Shown here piece after piece: positions 2,502 to 52,863 of a DNA stretch of 64,000 bases. The position numbers and the translations under genes are program-made. The stretch lies in assembly GCA_051532035.1 (NCBI GenBank), contig JAOPTW010000011.1:62043-126042 (forward strand), in the 5' to 3' direction. Position 1 is the first letter of the stretch. Every line of letters starts with the position of its first letter. The notes under the pieces are model-generated. The model worked only from the letters and a program-made list of their open reading frames with translations, was not told the DNA's origin and ran no database searches. The stretch is from Fibrobacterales bacterium. GTDB lineage: Bacteria; Fibrobacterota; Fibrobacteria; Fibrobacterales; JAOPTW01.

Positions 2502-3347
2502 ATGAAAATCATACATTATACATGCTTCGCACTACTATCTTTGCTGACCCTCAGTGGCTGTAATGCAACTCAATCATCTGGTACCGAATCAAGTACAACC
2601 TCAGATTTTGAATCATCGAGTACACCTACATTTGAATCATCAAGTACAGAGAGCACATCGAGCGAAGAAAACGACGAGGGAGTGAGTTCATCAATTGAGG
2701 CCTCATTATCCAGTGAAACTGAAGAGGTTTTTACAGAAAGTTCTATAGAAAGTTCCGTACTCGCTGAATCAAGCTTTGATATTTTATCTCGTTCGAGCAG
2801 TGAAGAAGTAGAGACAGAAGATGGTGAAAGTAGCCTCGATCTAATTGCTGACCTTTCAAGTTCTTCACAGTCAAACGAAGTAGAATTCAATGAAGAAACA
2901 GTGACACAACTGTTTAATATCGTTGGTTTCAAAGGAGTTGCAGGGGCAGATGATGCGCTTAAAAATTCCTTTACTGGAGTATTTGGCCGCTTAGATAGTA
3001 ATGGGGACAATCTCATTGTACTCGATGAATATATTGCATCACCAATGTTTGATGAAACAGCGGCAACCGGAATTTATAACGCAACCGATCGTGACAAAAA
3101 TGGGAGTATTACCCTCGAAGAGTATATTGAAAATCGCATCATTACTGATGAAGCAAAACTCATTTTTGAGGAACATGATACTGATGGTGATGGTTTTCTA
3201 ACTTCAGAGGAGTGGGTGGCGAGTAGTAACTTGGATGAAGCAATTGCAGTGGCATCATTCGAAGCATTTGATAGCGACTTAAATGGCCAGGCAACAACTC
3301 CAGAGTATTTAGTTGTTTGGGGAGCGTGGGCCCGTTCTGAATATTAG
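2502..3347 (+). CDS. Secreted lipoprotein with an acidic Ser/Glu-rich linker and EF-hand-like calcium-binding loops
   Basis: Lipobox LLTLSGC. Long S/E/T-rich low-complexity linker. Four DxDxDG-type loops: LDSNGDNLIVLDEY, DRDKNGSITLEEY, DTDGDGFLTSEEW, DSDLNGQATTPEY. Confidence 0.8.
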   Translation: MKIIHYTCFALLSLLTLSGCNATQSSGTESSTTSDFESSSTPTFESSSTESTSSEENDEGVSSSIEASLSSETEEVFTESSIESSVLAESSFDILSRSSSEEVETEDGESSLDLIADLSSSSQSNEVEFNEETVTQLFNIVGFKGVAGADDALKNSFTGVFGRLDSNGDNLIVLDEYIASPMFDETAATGIYNATDRDKNGSITLEEYIENRIITDEAKLIFEEHDTDGDGFLTSEEWVASSNLDEAIAVASFEAFDSDLNGQATTPEYLVVWGAWARSEY

Positions 3348-3445: not shown

Positions 3446-4270
3446 ATGGAGTTGATTTATGGCTATCTTGACTACCGAAAATATCTGAAGGATAGATTTG
3501 AGCATCTACGAAATACAGATCCTGATTTTAGTTTAAAACGGATTAACATCGAAATAAAAGCAACATCGGGTGGGTTTATTTCGAATGTAATCGCAGGACG
3601 AAAAAACCTTACCCACGCTCAAATCCCTCTTTTAAGCTCTTACCTTAACCATAACAAAAGTGAAAAACGTTATTTTGAGGCGCTCCTCTACTTTACCCGT
3701 ACCAAAAAACGCGAAGAAAAAGAACACTACTTCTCTATAATGAGAAGCCTCCAAAAAGCCAACATCAAAAAGATACCTTCTGAAGCACTCTGCCTCTTTG
3801 AGAAATGGTACTATGTGACCGTCCTCAATATTTTGAGAGTACACAAGTTTAGTGGACACTATAAAGAGCTCTCACAAATACTGATCCCCGAGATAACGGT
3901 TTCAGAGGCTAAACAGTCGATTGCTCACCTCCTCGACCTCGGTCTTATTAAGAAAGGTGGTCCATTAGGGTATACGGTATTAGATTCTATTCTCACGACA
4001 GGTGACGAAGTCCAGTCACTCTATGTAACGCCCTACCATCAAGCATTGCTCGAAACAACTTCGAAAGCACTGCCTCGTATTCCGGCAGATACACGGGACA
4101 TTTCAAGCATTACAATGACTATCTCTGAGAATACCTTTTTTAAAATCAAAGGAGAGCTCCAGCAGTTTCGCAAAAATATTTTAAATTTAGTAGAATCTGA
4201 TACAGCACCAAACAAAGTATATAACATGAATATGCAATTTATACCGGTAACTCGCGAGTTGAACAAATGA
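3446..4270 (+). CDS. TIGR02147-like protein (paralogous family first defined in Fibrobacter succinogenes), cytoplasmic
   Basis: N-terminal pattern YLDYRKYLKDRFEHLR...FSLKRINIEIK...GFISNVIAGRKNL matches my recollection of the TIGR02147 family. No signal peptide. The stop overlaps the next gene's start (ATGA). Confidence 0.6.
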   Translation: MELIYGYLDYRKYLKDRFEHLRNTDPDFSLKRINIEIKATSGGFISNVIAGRKNLTHAQIPLLSSYLNHNKSEKRYFEALLYFTRTKKREEKEHYFSIMRSLQKANIKKIPSEALCLFEKWYYVTVLNILRVHKFSGHYKELSQILIPEITVSEAKQSIAHLLDLGLIKKGGPLGYTVLDSILTTGDEVQSLYVTPYHQALLETTSKALPRIPADTRDISSITMTISENTFFKIKGELQQFRKNILNLVESDTAPNKVYNMNMQFIPVTRELNK

Positions 4271-6805: not shown

Positions 6806-7078
6806 AGTGTGCTCTTGGTAAAAGGGCGGTGTTTTAGACAAGAATACTATGTTTTAGGGGCAGAGACCACTGTTTTGGTGAGGTTTTGTGTGGATTTAGA
6901 AGCTTTCCCATTCTGTAGTTGATACCTTTGATGTAGTTTTAGCTTTTTGGATGACATTTAGTTTGTAGCTAATAATGTCCACACAAAAAAAGTAGCTACA
7001 TACTCAAGAACTCTGTTTACACCCCTGTTTTCTATCTTTTTGGACCAATATATCCTATTTCCCTTAAAAAGAGGACAC

Positions 7079-9718
7079 ATGGTTTATAGAAAACTAATGC
7101 CTTTATATATGTTGTTTTTCATATGTATCACTATTTCTTGCACTGAAAACTCAACATCTACAGCTGGAGCTTCACCAGAAGACATACCATCTTCAAGCTC
7201 TGAAATCGACCCCACAAAAGACATTGCCTTTGCAGCAAAAATTGTTCAGTCCGTAGGACAACTACCTACGTGTGATGAAAGTCTATACGGACAACTCTAT
7301 TTTGTTCTTTCAGAAGGTACTTTTCATGGGTGTATGGCCACGGGATATCAAGTAATTAACTTTGCCGGACCACAGGGCGAAACTGGTGCACAGGGGACTT
7401 CGGGAACAAATGGAACATCCTGCAATGCACTATCTATAGCTGAAGGTATAGAAGTTGTTTGTGCTGGTATGGTTATGGATACTATACATAATGGAGTAGA
7501 TGGTACTGACGGTGTAAATGGCCAAGATGGTACTGATGGCGCTGATGGAACAAATGGTATGCATGGTACTCACGGCACAAACGGACTTAATGGGATCGAT
7601 GGAAAAGATGGGATCGATGGCGCAAACGGGACATCATGTACTTCTCGGTCAATTATAGAAGGCACAGAAGTATTGTGTGCAGGTGTTGTTATTGATACAG
7701 TACGTCACGGACAAGATGGTTTTGCTGGTGTTGATGGTCAGGATGGTATAAATGGTGTTAATGGGGAATCTTGTAGCGCTCGTCCTATTACTGAGGGCAT
7801 TGAAGTTTCTTGCGGTGGTATTATTATTGATACTCTTAATCAGGGTGTTGATGGTCAAGAAGGTCAAAAAGGTACGGACGGTATAAATGGTATCAACGGA
7901 ACGAACGGCGTGGCTGGTAGAGATGGCAATGATGGGGCTGATGGAAGCAACGGAGTCAATGGCTCTGATGGAGAAGATGGAGTAGAGGGTGCCGCTGGAT
8001 ATAATGGTATTGACGGTATTGATGGAGCCTCATGTACAGCGCGCACTATCTTAGAAGGTTTAGAAATTTCTTGTGGCAGCGTTGTAGTTGATACCATTCG
8101 TGATGGTACTGCTGGCCAAGATGGAGCAGATGGTCAAGATGGTGTAGCTGGTCAGGATGGAGTTGACGGTCAAGATGGTGTAGCTGGACAAAATGGAGTT
8201 GACGGTCAAGATGGAGCAGATGGTCAAAATGGTGTAGCTGGTCAGGATGGAGTTGACGGTCAAGATGGTGTAGCTGGACAAAATGGAGTTGACGGTCAAG
8301 ATGGAGTAGATGGTCAAGATGGAGTAGATGGTCAAGATGGTGTAGCTGGTCAAGATGGTTCAGATGGCCACAACGGTCGAGATGGTTTGTCTTGTAGTGT
8401 TAATGCGATCGAAGAAGGTGTTGTTATTTATTGTCCTCGACTGGGCTATGATACATTGTATCATGGAGAAGAGGGAATACAAGGTCTCCAAGGACAGGCA
8501 GGCGATTCATGTATGGCTTATCCTATTGCTGAAGGTTCAGAAATTTACTGTGGCAATAGAGTTGTTGATACTATTTATAATGGAGTAGATGGTGTCGATG
8601 GTGTCGATGGTCAAGATGGTGTGGCTGGTCAGGATGGAGTTAACGGTCAAGATGGTGTAGCTGGTCAGGATGGAGTTGACGGTCAAGATGGTGTCGATGG
8701 TCAAAATGGTACTGATGGTGCTAGTATAGAATGGTTAGGTGCACTTGTTACACCTCCAAATACTCCTTTTCTGAATCAGGCTTTTTATTGGTCTACAATG
8801 GGTATTTCGTGTATTTGGGCTGGCAATTCATGGGAATTAATTTCAAAAGATGGTGGAGTAACTGTGACTACTTGCGAAGCTGCTAATGATAGAAATGCAA
8901 TGGCTCCATCAAGAGCTTCAAACTCATGGGATGAGCTAAAACTTGGTGATTTTTACCTACTCAATAATCGTTGGGGCTCAGATGCAACTCAATGTGGGTC
9001 AGACTATGAAATTTATGTTGCTGATGATTATACTTTTGGGTGGGAATTTAGTAGACCTTCTTGTGGTACAGAAAGGCAGCAGGATAGGTATCCAGATTAT
9101 CCATCAATAGTTATTGGGGCATCACCTTTCGAAAAAGTTGAAAGTGATCCAGCCCCTTTTAAATCATCTACCGATCTTTTACCTATACAGGTTGGAGATA
9201 TTGTTTCTGCCCAATTAGAGATCGATGCATTAAATTTGATTCTTGCACAGGACAATCGTTGGATTGTTTCATTAGAATTATGGTTGAGCCGTGAAGACCC
9301 AACAATAAATCGTCAACCAGACCCTGAAGTACAATTGTTATTAATTTTTGGGTGGTCCGATGAATGGTGGCCTTGTAATCAAACAGTTGGGAGGTTTGCT
9401 GAAAATCTTGAACTTACTACTGGTGCACATGATTTTACTCTCTGCCAACAAGAAGATGACTGGGGAGGATGGAGTTACTTTCAGTTTCGTGCAGGTGATG
9501 GTACCGATGCCTTTTCTCAACAATCTATCAATGGAATAATTGATCTAAAAGCTGCTATTGATTGGTTAGTCGCTCATGCGGGAGTATCAACTGACTATTA
9601 TGTTTCTATGCTCACATTAGGTACAGAAATTGATAATAATACTGATGGAGTTGTGACTATTGCCGATCTGACTCTCGAAGTGAATTCTGAATATGGTGGT
9701 ATTGAGTTTGGTAATTAA
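7079..9718 (+). CDS. Lipoprotein with collagen-like Gly-X-Y runs alternating with six Cys-containing modules, and a C-terminal GH12-like domain
   Basis: The track start 7040 is TTG. ATG 7079 has an AAGAGGA RBS and gives MVYRKLMPLYMLFFICITISC (lipobox). There are long GxDGxDG (G-X-Y) runs. The module SC-x9-E[IV]xC[AG]xx[IV][IV]DT[IL] occurs six times. The C-terminal ~290 aa carries GH12-like landmarks: NNRWGSDATQC, YPS, ELWL, LLLIFGW, LGTEIDN. Confidence 0.85.
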   Translation: MVYRKLMPLYMLFFICITISCTENSTSTAGASPEDIPSSSSEIDPTKDIAFAAKIVQSVGQLPTCDESLYGQLYFVLSEGTFHGCMATGYQVINFAGPQGETGAQGTSGTNGTSCNALSIAEGIEVVCAGMVMDTIHNGVDGTDGVNGQDGTDGADGTNGMHGTHGTNGLNGIDGKDGIDGANGTSCTSRSIIEGTEVLCAGVVIDTVRHGQDGFAGVDGQDGINGVNGESCSARPITEGIEVSCGGIIIDTLNQGVDGQEGQKGTDGINGINGTNGVAGRDGNDGADGSNGVNGSDGEDGVEGAAGYNGIDGIDGASCTARTILEGLEISCGSVVVDTIRDGTAGQDGADGQDGVAGQDGVDGQDGVAGQNGVDGQDGADGQNGVAGQDGVDGQDGVAGQNGVDGQDGVDGQDGVDGQDGVAGQDGSDGHNGRDGLSCSVNAIEEGVVIYCPRLGYDTLYHGEEGIQGLQGQAGDSCMAYPIAEGSEIYCGNRVVDTIYNGVDGVDGVDGQDGVAGQDGVNGQDGVAGQDGVDGQDGVDGQNGTDGASIEWLGALVTPPNTPFLNQAFYWSTMGISCIWAGNSWELISKDGGVTVTTCEAANDRNAMAPSRASNSWDELKLGDFYLLNNRWGSDATQCGSDYEIYVADDYTFGWEFSRPSCGTERQQDRYPDYPSIVIGASPFEKVESDPAPFKSSTDLLPIQVGDIVSAQLEIDALNLILAQDNRWIVSLELWLSREDPTINRQPDPEVQLLLIFGWSDEWWPCNQTVGRFAENLELTTGAHDFTLCQQEDDWGGWSYFQFRAGDGTDAFSQQSINGIIDLKAAIDWLVAHAGVSTDYYVSMLTLGTEIDNNTDGVVTIADLTLEVNSEYGGIEFGN
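8104..8385 (+). repeat. Near-perfect tandem 18/36-nt DNA repeats encoding (GVDGQDGVAGQ[DN])n
   Basis: The unit ggtcaagatggtgtagctggtcaggatggagttgac recurs with only a few substitutions. A second block lies at 8578-8715. Confidence 0.9.
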
Positions 9719-9797: not shown

Positions 9798-9825
9798 AGC
9801 CCCCAAAAAAGGGGCTGTTATGTTG
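9798..9825 (+). terminator. Candidate rho-independent terminator after the collagen/GH12 gene
   Basis: Stem agcccc / ggggct with an A-rich loop, followed by a weak T-rich tail. Confidence 0.4.
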
Positions 9826-11553: not shown

Positions 11554-13182
11554 TTACTCCACCTGATCATAACAGATAGCATCAAAAGGAGTACCCGGTA
11601 CCGCTGAACGGCCGGTAGTAATAACAATAGAGTCAGACATATCAAAGGTTATGTTTGAGACAATGGAAGTGGGCTTACCATTCTGTAAGGCCGTAACCGA
11701 TACATTGTTAGCGCCTTTACTGAATTTGATATCAGACCCTTTCACCTGCATGATATGCGGCGCGAGCATTACATCCGGCGGTACTTCAAAAAGAGGGAGG
11801 TCGGTAGATATGAACCAATCATCGGTTGTTGTGTTTTTCACTTCTATCTCTCTCGGCTTATCTGTTTGGATAGCACTTTCTAAAATTTGATTAAAAATAC
11901 CTTCTATCTGATCAGCATCAGAGAGTGCTTTAAAAAATCCATTTGTTTTTTCGGCCATAGCAACGAGTGGCTCATACCTTGAATTTTGTAATCCTATGTA
12001 GTATATCTCAGGATAATTTGTTGAATCTTGTTTCGCAATATAATTATCAAGCTTGGTAAGATCTTCTTCATAAGGGTTTCCATCAGTGAAGAACAATATC
12101 ACCTGTCTGTTAGGAGATTCAGTAGAGATAATATCACTCCAATCTTTTGCAAGAACGAGGGACGATTTAAAACTCGTTCCCACAGAATCATTATACTCAC
12201 CACAATTCATGGTACTTTCAAAGAGTTCGAAGTCATAGGTTGCTTTCTTTTTAAGTTTGTCAAGGTGAGCTGCATTAGAGAGTTTATCGGGCATTACGAG
12301 ACTATTATAGGTACTCACCGCTTCCCCATTACATACTCCCGCAGCAAACCCAAAATATGCGACATTGGATTTCGGTACTCGTGCGGTGAGTGTATCAATC
12401 GCTTTTACCACGGCAACAGAGGTGAGCATATCGGGATCATACTTTCTCATAGACATACTTCTATCAATAACAAAGGTGATATCGATAGGGTCGTTGAGCA
12501 CGTTCTTTAGAGGGAGACACATATTCAGACCGTTTTCACTTATGGAGCGTATGTTACTCGGTAGGGTATAGGTACTTATGATATCTGACTCGAATGATAC
12601 ACAGGAGTCATTCTGTGTCGCTAGTTCACAGCGATATGCAAGACATACAGAGAGCCCAGAACACTCATCATCAGCGCAGTCAATGTCACCGTCATCATCA
12701 TTATCAAGACCATCGATACAGAGAATTGTTGTATTTTCTCTGTCGGGGAGGCACGCTGCTATACCACTACAATCCATGTCATCACAATCAATGGCACCAT
12801 CGTCATCATTATCTACTAAGTCTGTGCATGTTTTGTGGGTGTTTTCTCCATCGGGTAAACAAACATCAATTGCCTTGCAGTTTAAATCGTCACAGTCTAT
12901 TTTATTATCACCATCATTATCAATTCCATCACTGCAGAGTTCTTTGGTGTTTTCATGTAATATTTCATTAGCTAAGAGTACACAGTATCGATCTGCATCA
13001 CAGTCACTGTCGTCACAATCAATATAACCATCGGAGTCATTATCAATTAAGTCGTCACACAGAGTTTCACTGGGTTTAATATCTTTTTTCATAGATAATT
13101 TTAAATTATCATCTTGATCGGAAATACAATTACTCAAAACTAATTGTATGAGTACCATTAAAAACAACTTTCCCTTAATCAT
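11554..13182 (-). CDS. Lipoprotein with four Cys/Asp-rich MopE-like putative metal-binding repeats and a von Willebrand factor A domain
   Basis: The track start 13218 is TTG. ATG 13182 gives MIKGKLFLMVLIQLVLSNC (lipobox). The repeat C-x-D-x-[IV]DND-x-DG-x-IDC-x-D-x-[DE]C occurs four times. VWA MIDAS motif: DITFVIDRSMSM. Confidence 0.8.
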   Translation of the reverse strand: MIKGKLFLMVLIQLVLSNCISDQDDNLKLSMKKDIKPSETLCDDLIDNDSDGYIDCDDSDCDADRYCVLLANEILHENTKELCSDGIDNDGDNKIDCDDLNCKAIDVCLPDGENTHKTCTDLVDNDDDGAIDCDDMDCSGIAACLPDRENTTILCIDGLDNDDDGDIDCADDECSGLSVCLAYRCELATQNDSCVSFESDIISTYTLPSNIRSISENGLNMCLPLKNVLNDPIDITFVIDRSMSMRKYDPDMLTSVAVVKAIDTLTARVPKSNVAYFGFAAGVCNGEAVSTYNSLVMPDKLSNAAHLDKLKKKATYDFELFESTMNCGEYNDSVGTSFKSSLVLAKDWSDIISTESPNRQVILFFTDGNPYEEDLTKLDNYIAKQDSTNYPEIYYIGLQNSRYEPLVAMAEKTNGFFKALSDADQIEGIFNQILESAIQTDKPREIEVKNTTTDDWFISTDLPLFEVPPDVMLAPHIMQVKGSDIKFSKGANNVSVTALQNGKPTSIVSNITFDMSDSIVITTGRSAVPGTPFDAICYDQVE

Positions 13183-13379
13183 AATACCCCTCGATGCATG
13201 CATATTGTCTGTGAACAATTAAATATATATTGTTGAGAATCAATCAACGTGCGACTTACACTGATATTTGGGTTGTTAAGAATGTTTTACTTTTGCGAAC
13301 TGTTTGAGTACAATTGGGGCGTATGGTGAGTTGCTTATTATGGCCCGAACTTCTCAGTTGTGAGTGGGAGGTCCATTAC

Positions 13380-14552: not shown

Positions 14553-16079
14553 TTAAAAATTATAGGTTAGAGCGATATGAAAGGTATTTCTTTTATGAAT
14601 ATATAAGGTTGGTTGGGTATCACTGAAGGTTTTAGAAAATAATGCATAGCCCGCTGTTGCTGTAATGGCAATTTTTTGTGTAATATAGAGATGGAGCTCG
14701 GAGACTATTTCAAAATCTTGTGAATAGATATAGGTACCTTGATGTTTACCAACGAGCCCAAAACAGTAATACGAACCCAATGAAATTGCACCTTTTTGAT
14801 TGAAGATGCGGGGAGAAGTGAATCCTAGTCCAATTTTTGTCCAGTATTGCCGCTCTTCACTCTGGTTAAATTGTAGGTCTTGTGCAAGATACCACAGAGG
14901 CACTGGGTATACTTTGATTGAACTTTTTACTGATCCATCTAATGAGAGTGCTTTAGCGAGGGTGACTGTTATGTATGAATGGGGAGGTTTGATTGGAGCA
15001 GTTTTTTGAACTGTTCCTTTATAGTAGGCGATAGATATAGGGAGTGTGTGAAGGTCTGTAGAGTATATTTCTTTCTGTTCACGGCGTCGCACAACAAATG
15101 AATGAGAGCGGGTGGTCTCTTCGTTCTTCTGATAGAGGGTATAGTTTCCGGGGTTTAATGCAATAGAGAGGGGAATGCGTGATCGTTTGGTTAGGTCGGC
15201 AACGATGAGATTATCTCTATTGGCAATGGTAATACTGCCCATAAGGTGTGAATCGAGAATGATTCCAGAGCCAGAGCGATTGAGGTCTGTAAGAATGAGG
15301 TCGCCTTCGAGTTTCATGTTAAATTCAGCATTGGGGTGTTGTGAGGTGCCGAAAAATGATTGAGACTGTATCAGAGTATTGTGGTAAGCATAGGTATAGG
15401 CTTCCATGAGTGAGACTTTATTGTCACCCGATACATCTGCAGCCCCTCGTAATCCATTAGTAAAATAGTGTGTGAAATACGAACTGCCCAATTGATCAGA
15501 TTCATGGGAGAGCTCATTATGAGCGCTCGATGAAATAAGGATAGTCCCTTCGGCAGTAATGCTTTGGTTTATGGCTACGGGGGCAACCTTTTTTACCCCT
15601 TTTTTGCGGATGAGCGATCCACTTTCACAGGCATCAAAAAAACCGATTTTTACCCGAGCAGGTATTTCCTTAAAGAGACGCGCAAATTGATGATAGGTAA
15701 ATGAGGTAGAGCCAAGTTTCATCCTATGAGAATCGCCATGGCCCGAAAAATAGAATATAAAAACAGCAGGTTCTGATGTGGACTTATTGTGTAGTGCGAT
15801 CGTTGATTGCATCTGATTAAATGCTGTGATAACTTCTTTTTTTGTGGGAGACTTGAGGAGTGTTATGTTTTTGGGTTGTAAAAAACCAAAGTGAGAAAAT
15901 ATGGAAGATATTTTCTCAGCATCCTTTTCAGAGTATTTAAGCTTGGCATCTGATGGATCACCTTGGTTATGACCAATAAAAAGACCGTAGTGTGTTGAAG
16001 CGTGGACAGGGAGTATCGCCATAACAAAGAGAATAGTTATACTGGTTATAAAGAGTCGGCTCAATTTATTTTTTCTCAT
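14553..16079 (-). CDS. Secreted caspase-family (peptidase C14) domain protein with a C-terminal beta-barrel-like region
   Basis: Signal peptide. His-Cys dyad context FIFYFSGHGD...IGFFDACESGS. The C-terminal ~150 aa has alternating hydrophobic residues and ends ...HIALTYNF (terminal aromatic, as in OMPs). Confidence 0.75.
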   Translation of the reverse strand: MRKNKLSRLFITSITILFVMAILPVHASTHYGLFIGHNQGDPSDAKLKYSEKDAEKISSIFSHFGFLQPKNITLLKSPTKKEVITAFNQMQSTIALHNKSTSEPAVFIFYFSGHGDSHRMKLGSTSFTYHQFARLFKEIPARVKIGFFDACESGSLIRKKGVKKVAPVAINQSITAEGTILISSSAHNELSHESDQLGSSYFTHYFTNGLRGAADVSGDNKVSLMEAYTYAYHNTLIQSQSFFGTSQHPNAEFNMKLEGDLILTDLNRSGSGIILDSHLMGSITIANRDNLIVADLTKRSRIPLSIALNPGNYTLYQKNEETTRSHSFVVRRREQKEIYSTDLHTLPISIAYYKGTVQKTAPIKPPHSYITVTLAKALSLDGSVKSSIKVYPVPLWYLAQDLQFNQSEERQYWTKIGLGFTSPRIFNQKGAISLGSYYCFGLVGKHQGTYIYSQDFEIVSELHLYITQKIAITATAGYALFSKTFSDTQPTLYIHKRNTFHIALTYNF

Positions 16080-47337: not shown

Positions 47338-50300
47338 CTACTCAAATGATACTATAAATACGCCTTTCGGTAATGAACTGGAAAGAGAGAGTGTCTCTTT
47401 CTCTACTGTGCCAGACTGTATCAGGGCACCCCGAATACTATAGAGTCTAAACGTTTTTGAATTACGTGGTACGGCAAGGAGGTGTGAACTTCTTTTAATA
47501 TTATTAATGAGCTTCACCGATGAGAATTGAGAGGTGCTTTGAGTATAAGTAATCGCTGTAAGGGCTGATGAGAGAGGAGCGCTGGTGCCTGAAACGAGTA
47601 CCCCCGATGAAGGTGTCATTGTATTCTGAAAAGAGCTGCCGTGATTTCCAGAGTTTGGAGGTATTTCAAATGAGCTACTGGTGTCAGCTACATAAGAAAT
47701 CCCCGGTACGTTATAGTCTGCTGAAGAAGTGAGTGTTTCATCGGTATCATCAGAACTAATCTGTTCCGTATCAGAATATACATCAATCGTCATGATTACT
47801 GGTGCACTCGTGTCTCCAGCTGCAAATGCACGTACCGGTACGTGAAGTCTACCGGTATATTCCTGATTCGGAGTGACCCTCTGGTTGTTAATGGTGTAGT
47901 GCTCTCCAGGCTCTAACAAGAGTGTGATAGCGTCTCTATCCTGGTCTTGTGCATCCGTCATAGCAAGAGTAACTGTAAGGCTGCTATTGAGAGGTATTGT
48001 TTGAGGTGTAGTATGGGTAAGAGTAGGTGGGTAGAGGACAGGGATGACAAAAACTGATAGATACCTTGTGTTACTTGTATCAGAGCCGGAAATGGCTCTT
48101 ACAGGGACATTCAGGGTGCCGCTGTAATTATTTGATGGAATTACTCGATTGTCATCTATAGTATAGCGGTAACCACTTGAAGGTATAACTTTATCTATTG
48201 TGTCACCTTCAAGGTCGATTATTTTAACCATGCTTGGGAGTAATGTGAGAATAGAATCTTCCTTGATTGTTTGTGTTCTAGTGGAGATAAGTGTCGGCGG
48301 GTCGTTTACCGGAGTCACTATAATCGTCATATCAATCGGGGGAGATTTATAACTATATCGGGAAACATAAAGTGGTACCGTCAATATTCCATTGAAATTA
48401 TCATCAGGGATTATGGTTAAATAGGAAACAGTGTAATTGTCACCACTTTGTACATTCAAATAAAAGGGGTCACCATCTATATCTTGGGCGTCAGTCATTG
48501 CAGAGGTGACTGTTAAAGTACTGTCTTCTGGAATTGTCCTCATTTGCGCTGTAGTAATTGTCGGATTGTCTTGTCTACCTCTCACATATATTTCAATAAC
48601 AGAGGTGTCAGAGTCACTATTATCAGTGAGCTGGTACCAGAGAGTGTCAGTTCCATACCAGTCTTTGTATGGTGTGTAGTAGAGAGTATCATTTTGATGC
48701 ACAAAGGTTCCATGGTGGGGAATACTGTCATTTAAAAGAGTAAATGTAAGTGGGTCGCCATCCGGGTCATATCGGTTTGAATTCAGATTATTAGTGGTAA
48801 ATGATGTTAAGGAATCCTCATAGCCATAGCGCGTTATTACATGAGCATTGGGAGGGTTATTTTTGCCCTGCGTTACTACCAGTATTGCCTGATTGCCCCA
48901 TAAGGTATCACCTGATTCAAGTTCTTCTCCTATGCGGTAGCGTAGAGAGTCGACAGTTCCTATAGGGGTATCATCTATAAAGGAGATGTTGTGTAAGGAG
49001 TCAATAAACATATCTCCAAAGAGGCTATCAACGTGTACCACCAGGCTGTCGCCATTTGATTCAATGTCATAGTCATTTTGCAGTACTTGATTGAATGGTG
49101 TTGTCTGCAGGGCAATTATTGAATCTCTAAAGGCCATAGGAGCATTATTTATGTTTAATAGTCCCGCATAGGTTTGAGTGCTTTTTATGATCCAGTCTGA
49201 ACCAAAAGACCATGTACTATATGAACTCTGTTGCCGAAGCTGATCGGTGGTTAACGGTGTGCCCAAAGCAGATGCTGTCTGGTTCGATGTTTCGGTATTC
49301 CAATAGCTCTCAGGTGAACTTATACTGGTGCTACCAACGAGCCCGCCAACAGTATTTTTGCCCCAAACGACACCTGTGCTGTAGCTTTGAAAAATAGTTA
49401 AACCTCCAGAGCCGACTAAGCCACCGACAGTAGTGTTGCCGCTCACTGTTCCAGTATTATAGGTGTTGCTGATCTCCGTATCAAGGTCTCCAACAATTCC
49501 TCCAACGATACTGGTTCCATGGACGTTCCCTGAATTGTAACTCTGGAGAATAGTATGACTTTCTCCTGCTATACCACCTACTCTCTTGCCACCCTTTATG
49601 CTGCCAGTATTAAAGGAGTAAGATATGGTGTCGTCATTGAGGCCTGCTATGCCGCCTACCTGCTCTGAACCGTTAATAGGAGAGATATTAAAAGTATGTA
49701 TGATTTTTTCATAATTTCTACCGGCAATTCCGCCCGTATTTTCTTGACCCTCAATTATTCCTTTGTTGCTGCTATAAGAAATTATGCCATAGTTTAATCC
49801 GGCAATTCCACCGGTAGCATGGCTGTAGTGAGAACTTTTTTCTTGTATATGCGCTTCGTTATAGGAGTGAGATATGGTCCCCCGGTTGGAGCCTGCAATG
49901 CCCCCTACAGTGTATGCGGTTGAGATTACCGACCCTTTGCAGTGTGAATACTGTATTGTACCTTTATTAACTCCTGCAAAGCCACCGACAAAATTCTTTC
50001 CTGTTATTTCAACAGCAAGTCCCAGGCTGTCTACATGAGCGGCTGAGTCTATTGCAGAAAACAAGCCGATATAATCTTCGTTCTTGTGGTTTATGAAGAG
50101 GTTCGAAATGGTGTTGCCGGCTCCATTAAAATAACCAGAGAACCCTCCGGTACCGTAGCCTATCGGAGAAAAACCGAAGCCATGATTGTCGGTTTTTGAG
50201 TCTGTTGCATCAATGTTTTGTGTTAACCTGTATGAACCGTAGAGTGGGTGAGTCGATACATTTCCAATCTTTTTAAGGTCTTCATAGGTTGCAATAGGGA

Positions 50301-52863
50301 TAATGGTATCGATAAAAGGCACTGCGATACTACTCCAGTTACCCCATAGTATGGCTCCCGATGTTAATTCTTCTCCCGGTCGATAATAACGATACAGTGA
50401 ATCTCGTGTTTCATTAATAGAGGAATAGGGTATTTCTATAGCTTTTGTAACAGGTGTATCGTCGGGATCAAAATCATTTTGAATAAAAACAGATAAGTCT
50501 ATTGGGTTATTCAGAGACTGAACTGAATCCATAAAACCGATGGGGGCATCATTGACACCGCGTAAACCCGGAAAACTTTGACCCTCATGTAACTCCCAGA
50601 TAGTGGTACGGTCCCAAGGAATAAATGGGTCCAGTTGTTTCATGCGATCCGTATTCAGGGGAGTACCGCCCCCTGAAGAGTCTATACCGGAGGTTTCTAT
50701 GTTCCAATAGCCTGATCCGTTACCACGTCCCGGTGCGCTTCCGGAATTGTCAGCACCGATTAATCCACCAAGATTACTGATACCGATAACTTTTCCGGTA
50801 CTATAACAGCGGGTGGTCGTCTCACCGTTTACTCCTACGAGCCCCCCGATGTTGTAATTGCCCTGAACAGCCGCAGTGCTGTAGGCGTTCCGGATTGTGT
50901 CCTGGTTACTTCCGGTGAGGCCCCCAATGTTGTTCCTGCCTTTCACAAATCCGGTTGAGTAACTCTGTGAAATAATACCGAGACTCGTTCCGGCATAAAC
51001 GCCTACATAGTTATTTCCAATTATTGTTCCTTCTGTTCCAAGGCTGTCAATTCGAGCAGTCTCTCCAAGTGTGCTGAATAATCCAACGTTGTCTTCTGTT
51101 GGTCTATTAATGTATAGGTTGGTAATAACATATCCTGAACCGTTAAATGAGCCGGAAAAATGTCTAGAGATTGTACCTATAGGGTCGAACCCTGCGCCGT
51201 TATTTTCATAGTGAGAAGCAGATGCGTCAATATTTTGAGTCAATCGATAATTGATGTTTAAGGGGTAACGCCAATGTTTTCCTATGCGTTTAAGCTCCTC
51301 GTAGGATGAAATGGTAATTTCTTGCTGCGTAAAGGGCATTGATATATGGACAGATCCACCCCACAGAGTGTCTCCTGAAGGAGTGATCTCTCCAGGACGG
51401 TAGAATATGTAGAGTGAGTCGACATCGTTAGGAATTGAGTCTATTTCAGGAATCATTTTTGAATATTGGTCGTATTTTACGAGCGTAACGTGAGGAATTT
51501 CAGCATCAAAATCATTGTTGAGAAAAGGGGAGTAGTCTATAGGGTCAGTAAGTGCAGGGGAAATGTCTGGAAAGCCAAATGGAGCATTGTTAAAGGTTGC
51601 ATCATTTAGAGCAGGATACGTCTGGTTGTTTGGGTTTTTCCAAATGGGAAGAGACCAATTAAAGTGGGAGGTGAGCTGTTTTAATCCCTGCGTAGTAAGT
51701 GAAGTCGCGGTAAGAGGTGTACTGCCATGGGGGTTTGACCCGACAGCGGAATCAAGGGTGGATGTCTCTCTGTTCCAGTAATTATTGGTAACTGTGGCAT
51801 GATAGAAGTCGAGCCATGCGGTGCCGACAAGGCCTCCAATTGACACATTTCCAGTAATATATCCACTACTGTAACAGTTGTCTATACTTCCAAGAGTGAA
51901 TCCTATGAGCCCACCAACATCCATGTGACCATGGACACGTGCAGTACTATAACTTTGCTCGACAATGTAGTTGTAAGGAAAGCCGGAAGAGGCATCGTTG
52001 CTACCTATAAGGCCTCCAACGCTCTGATATCCTTCCACAGGTCCCGTACTGTAACAACGATTAACGGAACCTCTATTGGAACCTATGATGCCACCCACAC
52101 TGTATTTACCTGTAACTGTTCCTGTTGAATAACTTAATTCCAGTAATCCGTCGTTAAATCCGGTAATGCCCCCAATTGTTCTCTCGCCATGTATTGCACC
52201 AATATTATAGCTTGATAGTATTGTACTTCTGTTTTGACCGGTAATACCGCCGATATCTTCTTTGCCCTGAATAGAACCTCTGTTGATGCACGCTTTAAAG
52301 GTAAATTTTGTGCTATAGCCGGATATTCCCCCCACGCGCCGTTCTCCATTTACACGCGCTTCATTTTGTACATTATAGATGGTGCTGTTGAGTATTCCGG
52401 CAATACCTCCAACATAGTCTTTTCCGGTAATTTGACCGGTTATCGTCAGGTTTGCTATATGCGAAGTAGTGTCTCTATTTGAAATACTATCCAATAGAGC
52501 AAAAAGTCCAATGGTATCCTGATGAGGGCGGTTGATGTATAGATCGGTGATTTTAAAGTTTTTACCATCCAGCCATCCCTTAAATGGACGTTTAGTTCCT
52601 CCGATTGGTGCAAAGCCTTTTCCACTGTTTTCATTGAGCGAGGCTGAAGCATCAATATCGTTTGTTAATATGTAATATGCGGTGAGGTTGCTATCTACTT
52701 GCTTTAAGTCAGCATAATCAGCAATTTCATAGGGATTACTTTTGAACCCTGAACCGGAGAGTTGCCCATCGACGGCATGGGTTGTACCCATACTGAGTAA
52801 AATGATGTAGAGTATTGAGGGAAAAGCATGATCTTGTAATAGTAATTGGAATATAGCTTTCAT
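47338..52863 (-). CDS. Giant (1841 aa) surface protein with three GLUG-repeat modules, cadherin-like/tandem repeats, a Ser-rich linker and a T9SS-type C-terminal domain
   Basis: Signal peptide. A ~370-aa module (Y[EA]DLK.[IV]....Y.LT[NQ][DN]IDA[ST].S then many [VI]GG[IL][IVT]G GLUG motifs) occurs three times. Repeats are bounded by NNPPNA, QDNPTI, VNDPPTL, LYPPTL. Tail: FRLYSIRGALIQSG...LPKGVFIVSFE. Confidence 0.85.
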   Translation of the reverse strand: MKAIFQLLLQDHAFPSILYIILLSMGTTHAVDGQLSGSGFKSNPYEIADYADLKQVDSNLTAYYILTNDIDASASLNENSGKGFAPIGGTKRPFKGWLDGKNFKITDLYINRPHQDTIGLFALLDSISNRDTTSHIANLTITGQITGKDYVGGIAGILNSTIYNVQNEARVNGERRVGGISGYSTKFTFKACINRGSIQGKEDIGGITGQNRSTILSSYNIGAIHGERTIGGITGFNDGLLELSYSTGTVTGKYSVGGIIGSNRGSVNRCYSTGPVEGYQSVGGLIGSNDASSGFPYNYIVEQSYSTARVHGHMDVGGLIGFTLGSIDNCYSSGYITGNVSIGGLVGTAWLDFYHATVTNNYWNRETSTLDSAVGSNPHGSTPLTATSLTTQGLKQLTSHFNWSLPIWKNPNNQTYPALNDATFNNAPFGFPDISPALTDPIDYSPFLNNDFDAEIPHVTLVKYDQYSKMIPEIDSIPNDVDSLYIFYRPGEITPSGDTLWGGSVHISMPFTQQEITISSYEELKRIGKHWRYPLNINYRLTQNIDASASHYENNGAGFDPIGTISRHFSGSFNGSGYVITNLYINRPTEDNVGLFSTLGETARIDSLGTEGTIIGNNYVGVYAGTSLGIISQSYSTGFVKGRNNIGGLTGSNQDTIRNAYSTAAVQGNYNIGGLVGVNGETTTRCYSTGKVIGISNLGGLIGADNSGSAPGRGNGSGYWNIETSGIDSSGGGTPLNTDRMKQLDPFIPWDRTTIWELHEGQSFPGLRGVNDAPIGFMDSVQSLNNPIDLSVFIQNDFDPDDTPVTKAIEIPYSSINETRDSLYRYYRPGEELTSGAILWGNWSSIAVPFIDTIIPIATYEDLKKIGNVSTHPLYGSYRLTQNIDATDSKTDNHGFGFSPIGYGTGGFSGYFNGAGNTISNLFINHKNEDYIGLFSAIDSAAHVDSLGLAVEITGKNFVGGFAGVNKGTIQYSHCKGSVISTAYTVGGIAGSNRGTISHSYNEAHIQEKSSHYSHATGGIAGLNYGIISYSSNKGIIEGQENTGGIAGRNYEKIIHTFNISPINGSEQVGGIAGLNDDTISYSFNTGSIKGGKRVGGIAGESHTILQSYNSGNVHGTSIVGGIVGDLDTEISNTYNTGTVSGNTTVGGLVGSGGLTIFQSYSTGVVWGKNTVGGLVGSTSISSPESYWNTETSNQTASALGTPLTTDQLRQQSSYSTWSFGSDWIIKSTQTYAGLLNINNAPMAFRDSIIALQTTPFNQVLQNDYDIESNGDSLVVHVDSLFGDMFIDSLHNISFIDDTPIGTVDSLRYRIGEELESGDTLWGNQAILVVTQGKNNPPNAHVITRYGYEDSLTSFTTNNLNSNRYDPDGDPLTFTLLNDSIPHHGTFVHQNDTLYYTPYKDWYGTDTLWYQLTDNSDSDTSVIEIYVRGRQDNPTITTAQMRTIPEDSTLTVTSAMTDAQDIDGDPFYLNVQSGDNYTVSYLTIIPDDNFNGILTVPLYVSRYSYKSPPIDMTIIVTPVNDPPTLISTRTQTIKEDSILTLLPSMVKIIDLEGDTIDKVIPSSGYRYTIDDNRVIPSNNYSGTLNVPVRAISGSDTSNTRYLSVFVIPVLYPPTLTHTTPQTIPLNSSLTVTLAMTDAQDQDRDAITLLLEPGEHYTINNQRVTPNQEYTGRLHVPVRAFAAGDTSAPVIMTIDVYSDTEQISSDDTDETLTSSADYNVPGISYVADTSSSFEIPPNSGNHGSSFQNTMTPSSGVLVSGTSAPLSSALTAITYTQSTSQFSSVKLINNIKRSSHLLAVPRNSKTFRLYSIRGALIQSGTVEKETLSLSSSLPKGVFIVSFE

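Follow-up and report, generated by a model that had tools for sequence, protein, structure and literature searches.

The window analysed here, a 64,000-nucleotide (nt) stretch of contig JAOPTW010000011.1 from a metagenome-assembled genome (MAG) of a Fibrobacterales bacterium (GenBank assembly GCA_051532035.1), carries at 7079-9718 on the + strand a gene for an 879-amino-acid (aa) protein. Collagen-like repeats are joined in it to a C-terminal domain with the fold of glycoside hydrolase family 12 (GH12), and the column of the GH12 nucleophile Glu is occupied by Gln. Our preferred reading, to which we assign a probability of roughly 0.55, is that of a surface lipoprotein whose probably trimeric stalk presents a non-catalytic, glycan-binding head derived from GH12.

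In this reading, a lipid anchor and a short linker would be followed by a small disulfide-containing domain and by a collagen-like region of ~450 aa, in which seven G-X-Y runs alternate with six 24-residue beta-modules whose Cys pairs probably form intrachain disulfides. The stalk would most likely trimerise and thereby hold three C-terminal domains away from the cell. The head, descended from a divergent clade of GH12 endo-beta-glucanases, lacks the nucleophile and several residues of the -1/+1 subsites, while its fold, its acid/base Glu and the residues of the -2 subsite are still in place. Most likely, it would serve as a non-hydrolytic, multivalent, lectin-like glycan binder for adhesion to polysaccharides, with hydrolysis left to intact paralogues such as P0001 of the same genome.

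Architecture and N-terminal region

From the N to the C terminus, the protein consists of the following parts:

7079-7141, + strand: putative signal peptide with a lipobox (MVYRKLMPLYMLFFICITIS, then C21), aa 1-21, read from the sequence
7142-7231, + strand: Ser/Thr/Pro/Glu-rich linker after the putative lipid anchor, aa 22-51, recognised by composition
7232-7366, + strand: N-terminal Cys-pair domain, aa 52-96 (LPxC...GxLYFV...FxxC), conserved in homologues with a FISUMP head
7367-8725, + strand: collagen-like region of seven G-X-Y runs, aa 97-549, from Pfam Collagen and the triplet count
8720-8878, + strand: junction module with a Cys pair, aa 548-600 (SIEWLG...P...NQAFYW...SCIW..NSWELIS...TTCE), from BLASTP against P0031
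8891-9715, + strand: GH12-fold C-terminal domain, catalytically degenerate, aa 605-879 (275 aa), from fold and profiles

The putative signal peptide has a basic n-region and a hydrophobic core and ends in the lipobox-like I-T-I-S-C21. By eye, MVYRKLMPLYMLFFICITIS-C matches the general lipobox pattern; the boxes of the homologues are clearer, with FTGC, FASC, LSAC and LAGC at the equivalent position in relatives of the stalk and in GH12 paralogues. Exposure of the protein at the cell surface through a lipid anchor is likely. The linker that follows (aa 22-51) matched no family in Pfam.

The Cys pair of the N-terminal domain is formed by C65 and C85. This domain directly adjoins the first G-X-Y run in all relatives, and we regard it as a candidate trimerisation or nucleation domain. 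In an AlphaFold2 (AF2) monomer model of aa 47-145, built on a 7-sequence alignment, it appears as a small beta-sheet with a predicted local distance difference test score (pLDDT) of 74-91. When this model was compared with the PDB by Foldseek, the best matches were the trimerisation domains of collagens XVIII and XV, at non-significant E values of 0.3-0.9, and the likeness is taken here as a lead and not as evidence.

The collagen-like stalk

The triplet runs and the modules between them are arranged as follows:

7367-7420, 7493-7636, 7709-7771 and 7844-8032, + strand: G-X-Y runs 1-4 (6, 16, 7 and 21 triplets)
8105-8392, 8465-8509 and 8582-8725, + strand: G-X-Y runs 5-7 (32, 5 and 16 triplets)
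7418-7492, + strand: Cys-pair module 1 (SCNALSIAEGIEVVCAGMVMDTIHN)
7634-7708, + strand: Cys-pair module 2
7769-7843, + strand: Cys-pair module 3
8030-8104, + strand: Cys-pair module 4
8390-8464, + strand: Cys-pair module 5, divergent (SCSVNAIEEGVVIYCPRLGYDTLYH)
8507-8581, + strand: Cys-pair module 6

Scored with the Pfam Collagen family (PF01391), the repeats reach 149.4 bits (cut-off 27.2; E 2.3e-44; seven matched stretches), far beyond chance. An earlier note, made from the letters of this DNA, had spoken of about 450 aa of G-X-Y without proline. The collagen-like character stands, but 450 aa is the span of aa 97-549 with its interruptions; the triplets themselves number 103 (309 aa), with strict Gly periodicity, and contain a single Pro, in GPQ at aa 98. 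The X position is mainly V (27), Q (26), T (13) or A (9), and the Y position mainly D (52), N (20) or A (12). Acidic residues (53 D and 7 E) far outnumber basic ones (2 K and 2 R), and the runs have a net charge of -56 per chain.

The six Cys-pair modules begin at aa 114, 186, 231, 318, 438 and 477. The note had counted six as well, under a common motif from which the fifth departs. All six interruptions, measured from the last Y-position Ser to the next Gly (7421-8581), are exactly 24 residues long, that is, eight triplet-lengths, and the triplet register is consequently kept across every module. Module 1 is modelled by AF2 as a three-stranded beta-meander (pLDDT ~63) with C115 and C128 at both ends of the first hairpin, a placement compatible with an intrachain disulfide staple.

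The rise of collagen is 0.286 nm per residue; if triple-helical, the 309 triplet residues would span ~88 nm, to which the six beta-modules would add. Proline is not needed for bacterial collagen-like structures, and the known proline-poor bacterial collagens presumably depend on contacts that charged and polar residues make between chains (PMC11162425). Given the unbalanced negative charge of the triplets, however, a triple helix would probably need counter-ions, or else the region is an extended monomeric spacer.

The latter option, a monomeric, polyanionic, extended or disordered and possibly cation-binding spacer that shows its head singly, is the strongest rival to a trimeric stalk, albeit an unlikely one. 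It concerns the stalk only and would be compatible with a non-catalytic binding head; such a spacer would take the role that Ser/Glu-rich linkers play in the paralogues. It would explain the hardly present basic residues behind the net charge of -56, and it fits both the pLDDT below 50 that the AF2 monomer gives over the G-X-Y run and the low-complexity Ser-rich, Ser/Glu-rich or Gly/Thr-rich linkers that all other inspected members of the GH12 clade carry at the same position. A disordered spacer, however, has no need of six 24-residue interruptions that preserve the register, nor would it account for strict Gly periodicity over 103 triplets. Moreover, triple helices are known for Pro-poor bacterial collagens (PMC11162425), and the small domain that adjoins the first G-X-Y run is conserved in all relatives, its best (non-significant) fold matches being collagen trimerisation domains. 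We therefore favour trimerisation of the stalk.

Several named families that reach the repeats were set aside. The NCBIfam cut-offs are not attained by the window protein for SclB (156 vs 325), SclA (74 vs 400) or Lcl (72 vs 500); with scores this far under the cut-offs, and with matches confined to the repeats and explained by composition, identity with any of the three was rejected. A Pfam 'Cementoin' match was likewise rejected as an artefact of the GQD/GVD repeats.

A stalk cassette shared with FISUMP-headed lipoproteins

A search with the full-length protein returned many collagen-like proteins, among them a Fibrobacterota subset (P0031, P0018, P0034, P0057, P0068, P0071, P0044 and P0016) with some or all of the stalk elements. 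From P0031, P0057, P0071 and others we defined an uncurated stalk cassette of five elements, namely a lipobox, an LPxC...GxLYYV...FxxC domain, G-X-Y runs, SC-x12-C-x5-DT[IL] modules and a WLG junction module. All five are present in the window protein, collinear with P0031, to which BLASTP aligns aa 37-302 and aa 432-600 at E values of 4e-40 and 2e-39 and with 37-42% identity.

This similarity ends at TVTTCE/TSTKCE, at ~aa 600. Past that point, P0031 and the other members of the subset carry PF09603 (FISUMP), confirmed in two of them by scores of 69 and 77 bits where the cut-off is 33.9, whereas no PF09603 match was found in the window protein. FISUMP-headed lipoproteins of Fibrobacterota thus share with it the lipobox, the N-terminal domain, Pro-poor G-x-D/N runs, the 24-residue modules and the junction, and differ in the head, which is PF09603 in them and GH12-like here. 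The stop of homology at ~aa 600, together with the FISUMP domain beyond it in the relatives, indicates a swap of heads, and the architecture of the window protein is best explained if a GH12 domain took the place of the FISUMP head normally found on this pre-existing Fibrobacterota cassette. A FISUMP-domain protein is among the identified cell-envelope proteins of F. succinogenes (PMC4619616), which fits a role of the stalk in displaying a binding head.

The junction module matched no Pfam family when tested within the C-terminal piece of the window protein. In P0016 and P0011, both FCB-group proteins, the same ~45-aa module (I-x-W-x-G...P...N-x-A-Y-Y-N...Y-I-[WY]-D-G-x-x-W) is interspersed among the collagen runs, in up to six or more copies.

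A head with the GH12 fold

The GH12 likeness of the C terminus, noticed earlier by eye, is borne out only through profiles and fold. PF01670 (GH12) matched neither the isolated head, up to an E value of 10, nor the whole protein, and the head has no NCBIfam GH12 match; its sequence alone found four PDB chains, all GH12, at E values of only 0.07-0.16. Once the head was combined with four close homologues (37-47% identity) into profile A1, PDB GH12 chains were matched at 8e-5, and an extended profile of 61 sequences (A2) matched them at 3e-46. An hhalign comparison of A1 with five proteins that pass the Pfam GH12 threshold gave a probability of 99.86% and an E value of 5e-31 over 234 columns. 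In agreement with the profiles, the AF2 model of the head (pLDDT 68, predicted template modelling score 0.74) retrieved exclusively GH12 structures among its top 50 Foldseek matches in the PDB (E 2.5e-14 to 2.4e-10, probability 1.00, target-normalised template modelling score 0.57-0.77). The motif correspondences proposed in the note are supported by profile A2 and hhalign.

An exhaustive HMMER search with A1 gathered 316 representatives from Fibrobacterales and Polyangiaceae/Myxococcota. Close intact members of this clade score 19.8-24.5 bits against the Pfam GH12 cut-off of 27, and distant ones pass it with 39-80 bits. The head is thus a member of a divergent Fibrobacterales/Polyangiaceae clade of GH12 that lies below the Pfam threshold. 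Among the 150 best representatives, neither collagen nor Cys-pair modules were found, only Ser-rich or Gly/Thr-rich linkers, and a literature search for collagen-GH12 fusions and for collagen-like lipoproteins of Fibrobacteres brought up no relevant paper, both in keeping with the suspected rarity of the fusion. A metagenome scan for close relatives of the head returned none.

Compared with GH12 enzymes (for example T. reesei Cel12A, R. marinus Cel12A, B. licheniformis XG12 and A. aculeatus XEG), the head shares the beta-jelly-roll fold, homology at the profile level and the motifs NNxWG, FGW, YP, [DE]xW and G-x-E with the acid/base Glu. Unlike them, it has Gln in place of the nucleophile Glu and altered Met, Trp and Asn columns near the -1/+1 subsites. 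It differs from them also in that its clade is divergent, marked by FWGW, additional Cys pairs and insertions, and in being placed on a collagen-like stalk. The head itself contains two Cys pairs.

The catalytic centre

The residues on which our prediction of lost activity rests are these:

9332-9334, + strand: codon CAA for Q752, in the GH12 nucleophile Glu column, from alignments and hhalign
9626-9628, + strand: codon GAA for E850 (G-T-E motif, in LGTEID), the general acid/base Glu, which is retained and aligned with the invariant Glu
I729, N in relatives: +1 subsite (N95 of TrCel12A)
L754, M in relatives: M118 of TrCel12A
I756, W in relatives or F in the close subfamily: W120 of TrCel12A
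T846, E in relatives: same strand as the acid/base residue

The suspicion that the nucleophile position is substituted proved right: the aligned column holds Q752 rather than a second catalytic Glu beside E850. This column is E in all four close homologues, in 103 of the 119 family members with a residue there and in ~97% of 60 aligned relatives. The nucleophile strand reads Q-L-L-L-I-F-G-W in the window protein against E-L-M-x-F-W-G-W in the close homologues, and in the hhalign alignment Q752 stands opposite E, L754 opposite M, I756 opposite W and I729 opposite N. Four changes (N729I, E752Q, M754L and E846T) fall within just 22 superfamily-conserved columns, and 8 of the 44 subfamily-conserved positions are altered in the window copy. 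Since several nearby positions are altered too, a single-base sequencing error is an unlikely cause of Q752. Retained in the head are NNRW (NNxW of the -2 subsite), FGW, YP, E733-x-W735, G-T-E850 and most aromatic residues of the cleft. Judging from strand periodicity, R844M, E846T and E850 would lie on one side of the strand, which suggests that the aglycone side of the cleft has been remodelled.

W22, M118, W120, E116 and E200 are absolutely conserved in GH12, and TrCel12A is inactivated by E116Q as well as by E200Q, M118A retaining <1% and N95A 7% of activity (PMC4680936). On the basis of the substitutions and these data, the head is predicted to have no glucanase or xyloglucanase activity. 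The E200Q variant still bound carboxymethyl cellulose in isothermal titration calorimetry (PMC4680936).

The same genome encodes an intact counterpart, P0001, which is 47% identical to the head and has all catalytic-centre residues in place (ELM..FWGW). Its locus tag, OCD01_10125, has the prefix OCD01_ in common with genes of the window (OCD01_04000 and OCD01_04170), which places it in the same MAG. Like most members of the clade, P0001 is a lipoprotein with a Ser/Glu-rich low-complexity linker and no collagen. At least two other members of the clade have lost catalytic residues, P0135 with Asn at the nucleophile column and P0144 with Gln there and Ala at the acid/base column, and inactive derivatives therefore arise repeatedly in it. 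Among B. licheniformis GH12 chains in the PDB, exactly the nucleophile column holds Q in 2jem_A and A in 2jen_A, which we take to be crystallographic nucleophile variants; the 'native' entry 2jem is in the same E-to-Q state as the window protein.

Alternative explanations for the head

A head that has lost its ligand along with its activity, leaving a mere surface fibre or a gene on its way to a pseudogene, is improbable. The 8 altered positions among 44 and the sporadic losses in P0135 and P0144 would suit such a relic, but the 2.6-kb open reading frame (ORF) is intact through highly repetitive DNA, and conservation extends over the structural core positions (Gly, Pro and Trp) and both of the head's Cys pairs. 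Furthermore, the altered positions, as far as strand periodicity tells, appear clustered on the cleft side and not scattered at random.

Slightly less probable still is that the head remains an active glycoside hydrolase or transglycosylase by an altered mechanism or with a different carboxylate. One candidate is E750, which lies on the same strand face as Q752 and two residues ahead of it; the acid/base E850 is present, and the fold and many aromatic cleft residues are retained. However, E750 also occurs in the intact close homologues (PEFELM, PEIELM) and is thus not compensating; four or five catalytic-centre columns have changed jointly; and both the E116Q state and substitutions in the Met and Asn columns abolish or nearly abolish the activity of TrCel12A (PMC4680936).

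We give very little weight to a decoy function, in which the head would absorb inhibitors or receptors aimed at the active enzyme. The Phytophthora protein XLP1 is documented as a non-enzymatic GH12 decoy (PMC12003678), and an intact, presumably active paralogue is found in the same MAG; decoys, however, are secreted and soluble, whereas the window protein is apparently lipid-anchored on a long stalk, there is no sign of a host or an inhibitor, and identity to the paralogue is just 47%.

An origin as a phage tail-fibre-type gene, or as an assembly chimera of a collagen gene and a GH12 gene, would be in line with the PHROG tail-fibre families that match the protein and with the short-read MAG source, yet it is most improbable, as nearly all PHROG matches lie in the G-X-Y runs (one weak match at aa 74-114, one reaching the junction module, none in the head), the neighbouring genes are cellular, a lipoprotein signal is present and homologous cellular lipoproteins exist, and the stalk-head junction lies in unique sequence with the G+C of the head (0.39) equal to that of the window. 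Phage origin was rejected on the distribution of these matches.

Points that weigh against a trimeric stalk with a binding head

The reading that we prefer, a trimeric stalk presenting a glycan-binding head, has to be set against several observations. The main weakness of the predicted triple helix is the near-purely acidic composition of the triplets, which do not have the balanced charge pairs to which the stability of other bacterial collagens is ascribed. In the AF2 monomer of aa 47-145 the G-X-Y run is left unmodelled, as would be expected of one chain alone, and the model says nothing about the helix. The changes in the cleft go beyond the nucleophile (N729I, M754L, I756, R844M and E846T), and binding of the ancestral substrate may therefore have been lost or altered; the GH12 clade has no characterised member. 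The sequence comes from a MAG, in which short reads may have mis-assembled or collapsed repeat copies, and the Gln codon is read from a single strain. Finally, the genomic neighbours offer no functional hint.

Relation to known systems

Surface proteins with a globular head on a collagen-like stalk are already known, as are the non-enzymatic GH12 protein XLP1 (PMC12003678) and the FISUMP paralogous families. Scl1 and Scl2 of Streptococcus, Lcl of Legionella and BclA of Bacillus resemble the window protein in their G-X-Y repeats without hydroxyproline, in the globular head on a stalk and in surface display, the last of these being likely here. Lcl forms a trimer shaped like a lollipop, whose C-terminal head binds glycans (PMC11162425). 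The window protein differs from all of them in its anchor, a lipobox and not an LPXTG motif or an amphipathic helix, in its near-purely acidic triplets, in the regular interruption by disulfide modules and in the fold of its head.

XLP1, a paralogue of XEG1, parallels the head, as we read it, in being derived from GH12, in lacking enzymatic function and in having an active paralogue alongside (PMC12003678). As a secreted oomycete decoy it has neither stalk nor anchor, and the relation between the two is one of family membership only.

The collectins, ficolins and C1q of animals offer a purely architectural analogy: an N-terminal Cys region leads into a collagen stalk and on to a neck or junction, and the carbohydrate-recognition heads are presented in threes. 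There is no homology: these are soluble, secreted proteins with Pro- and hydroxyproline-rich collagen and with heads of the C-type lectin, fibrinogen-like or C1q type. Taken further, the analogy would make the window protein an obligate trimer with an almost Pro-free, polyanionic helix nucleated by the N-terminal domain, locked in register by six disulfide beta-modules of eight triplet-lengths each and possibly stabilised by divalent cations, in which three dead GH12 clefts act as a multivalent lectin and the stalk serves as a plug-in scaffold for unrelated heads (FISUMP and GH12). We put forward this fuller version only tentatively.

Three features appear to be new: a collagen stalk that carries a presumably dead GH12 head, 24-residue disulfide modules that recur regularly within an acidic collagen almost free of Pro, and the evidence that heads are swapped on a common stalk. 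If our reading is true, the protein would represent a clear natural conversion of a glycoside hydrolase into a lectin-type head, with an intact paralogue in the same genome for comparison. The stalk would be a modular display scaffold of collagen and disulfide modules in Fibrobacterota, for which the literature search yielded no description, and it could be designable for trimeric display in protein engineering. A nearly Pro-free acidic collagen with register-keeping interruptions would also be a test case for a triple helix without hydroxyproline or charge pairs. Surveys of carbohydrate-active enzymes that use the Pfam GH12 model would probably miss the Fibrobacterales/Polyangiaceae clade.

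The gene and its tandem repeats

The ORF on the + strand is intact from the ATG at 7079 to the stop at 9718. Because purine-rich AAAAAGAGGA (7066-7075) immediately precedes it, ATG 7079 was taken as the start; an in-frame TTG lies further upstream, at 7040. A collection look-up of the exact protein gave no match with starts at 7040, 7079, 7097 or 7109. Neighbouring proteins (MGL1934149, MGL1934152 and MGL1934160 among them) were matched, and there is space for an annotated protein at this place in the numbering of accessions and locus tags. The gene looks monocistronic, and a terminator-like hairpin lies 80 nt past its stop:

9798-9816, + strand: AGCCCC-CAAAAAA-GGGGCT, from a consensus scan only, with a weak T-tail

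TRF reports arrays at 8113-8359 and 8580-8719 in the collagen-coding DNA, and two in-frame tandem arrays lie within them:

8117-8359, + strand: in-frame tandem array, period 90 nt, 2.7 copies built from 18-nt subunits, copies 1 and 2 identical at 89 of 90 positions
8609-8703, + strand: in-frame tandem array, period 36 nt, 2.6 copies, 93% matches

Near-perfect repeats of 18 and 36 nt had been claimed for this region. The 36-nt period stands, but the 18-nt period reaches only 74-77% matches, and the near-perfect longer period is 90 nt. As all periods are multiples of 9, a change in copy number preserves both the frame and the G-X-Y register.

A 97-aa antisense ORF (8060-8353, - strand) with repetitive ILT/YTILT lies entirely within the G-X-Y DNA repeat and is almost certainly a by-product of the repeat, not a gene.

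Genomic neighbourhood

The neighbours of the gene encode a response regulator, a GNAT acetyltransferase, a HEAT-repeat protein, a nitroreductase, a VWA lipoprotein and a caspase-domain protein. No carbohydrate-utilisation genes were found in the window or at the paralogue locus (L001).

Several neighbours have features of their own. The 554-aa ORF at 11554-13218 (- strand) has a signal/lipobox-like N terminus, four or five tandem acidic Cys-rich repeats (C-x-D-x2-DND-x-DG-x-IDC-x-D-x2-C) and then a VWA domain (Pfam E 1e-6). An ORF of 1841 aa at 47338-52863 (- strand) contains VGG[IL][IA]G-type (GLUG-like) repeats in three large blocks, followed by repeated ~100-aa domains and a C-terminal tail that resembles a sorting signal. 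The window also encodes a DUF4423 protein (3446-4270, + strand; E 1.4e-31), presumably of a Fibrobacter paralogous family, a caspase-domain (Peptidase_C14) protein (14553-16079, - strand) and an EF-hand protein (2502-3347, + strand).

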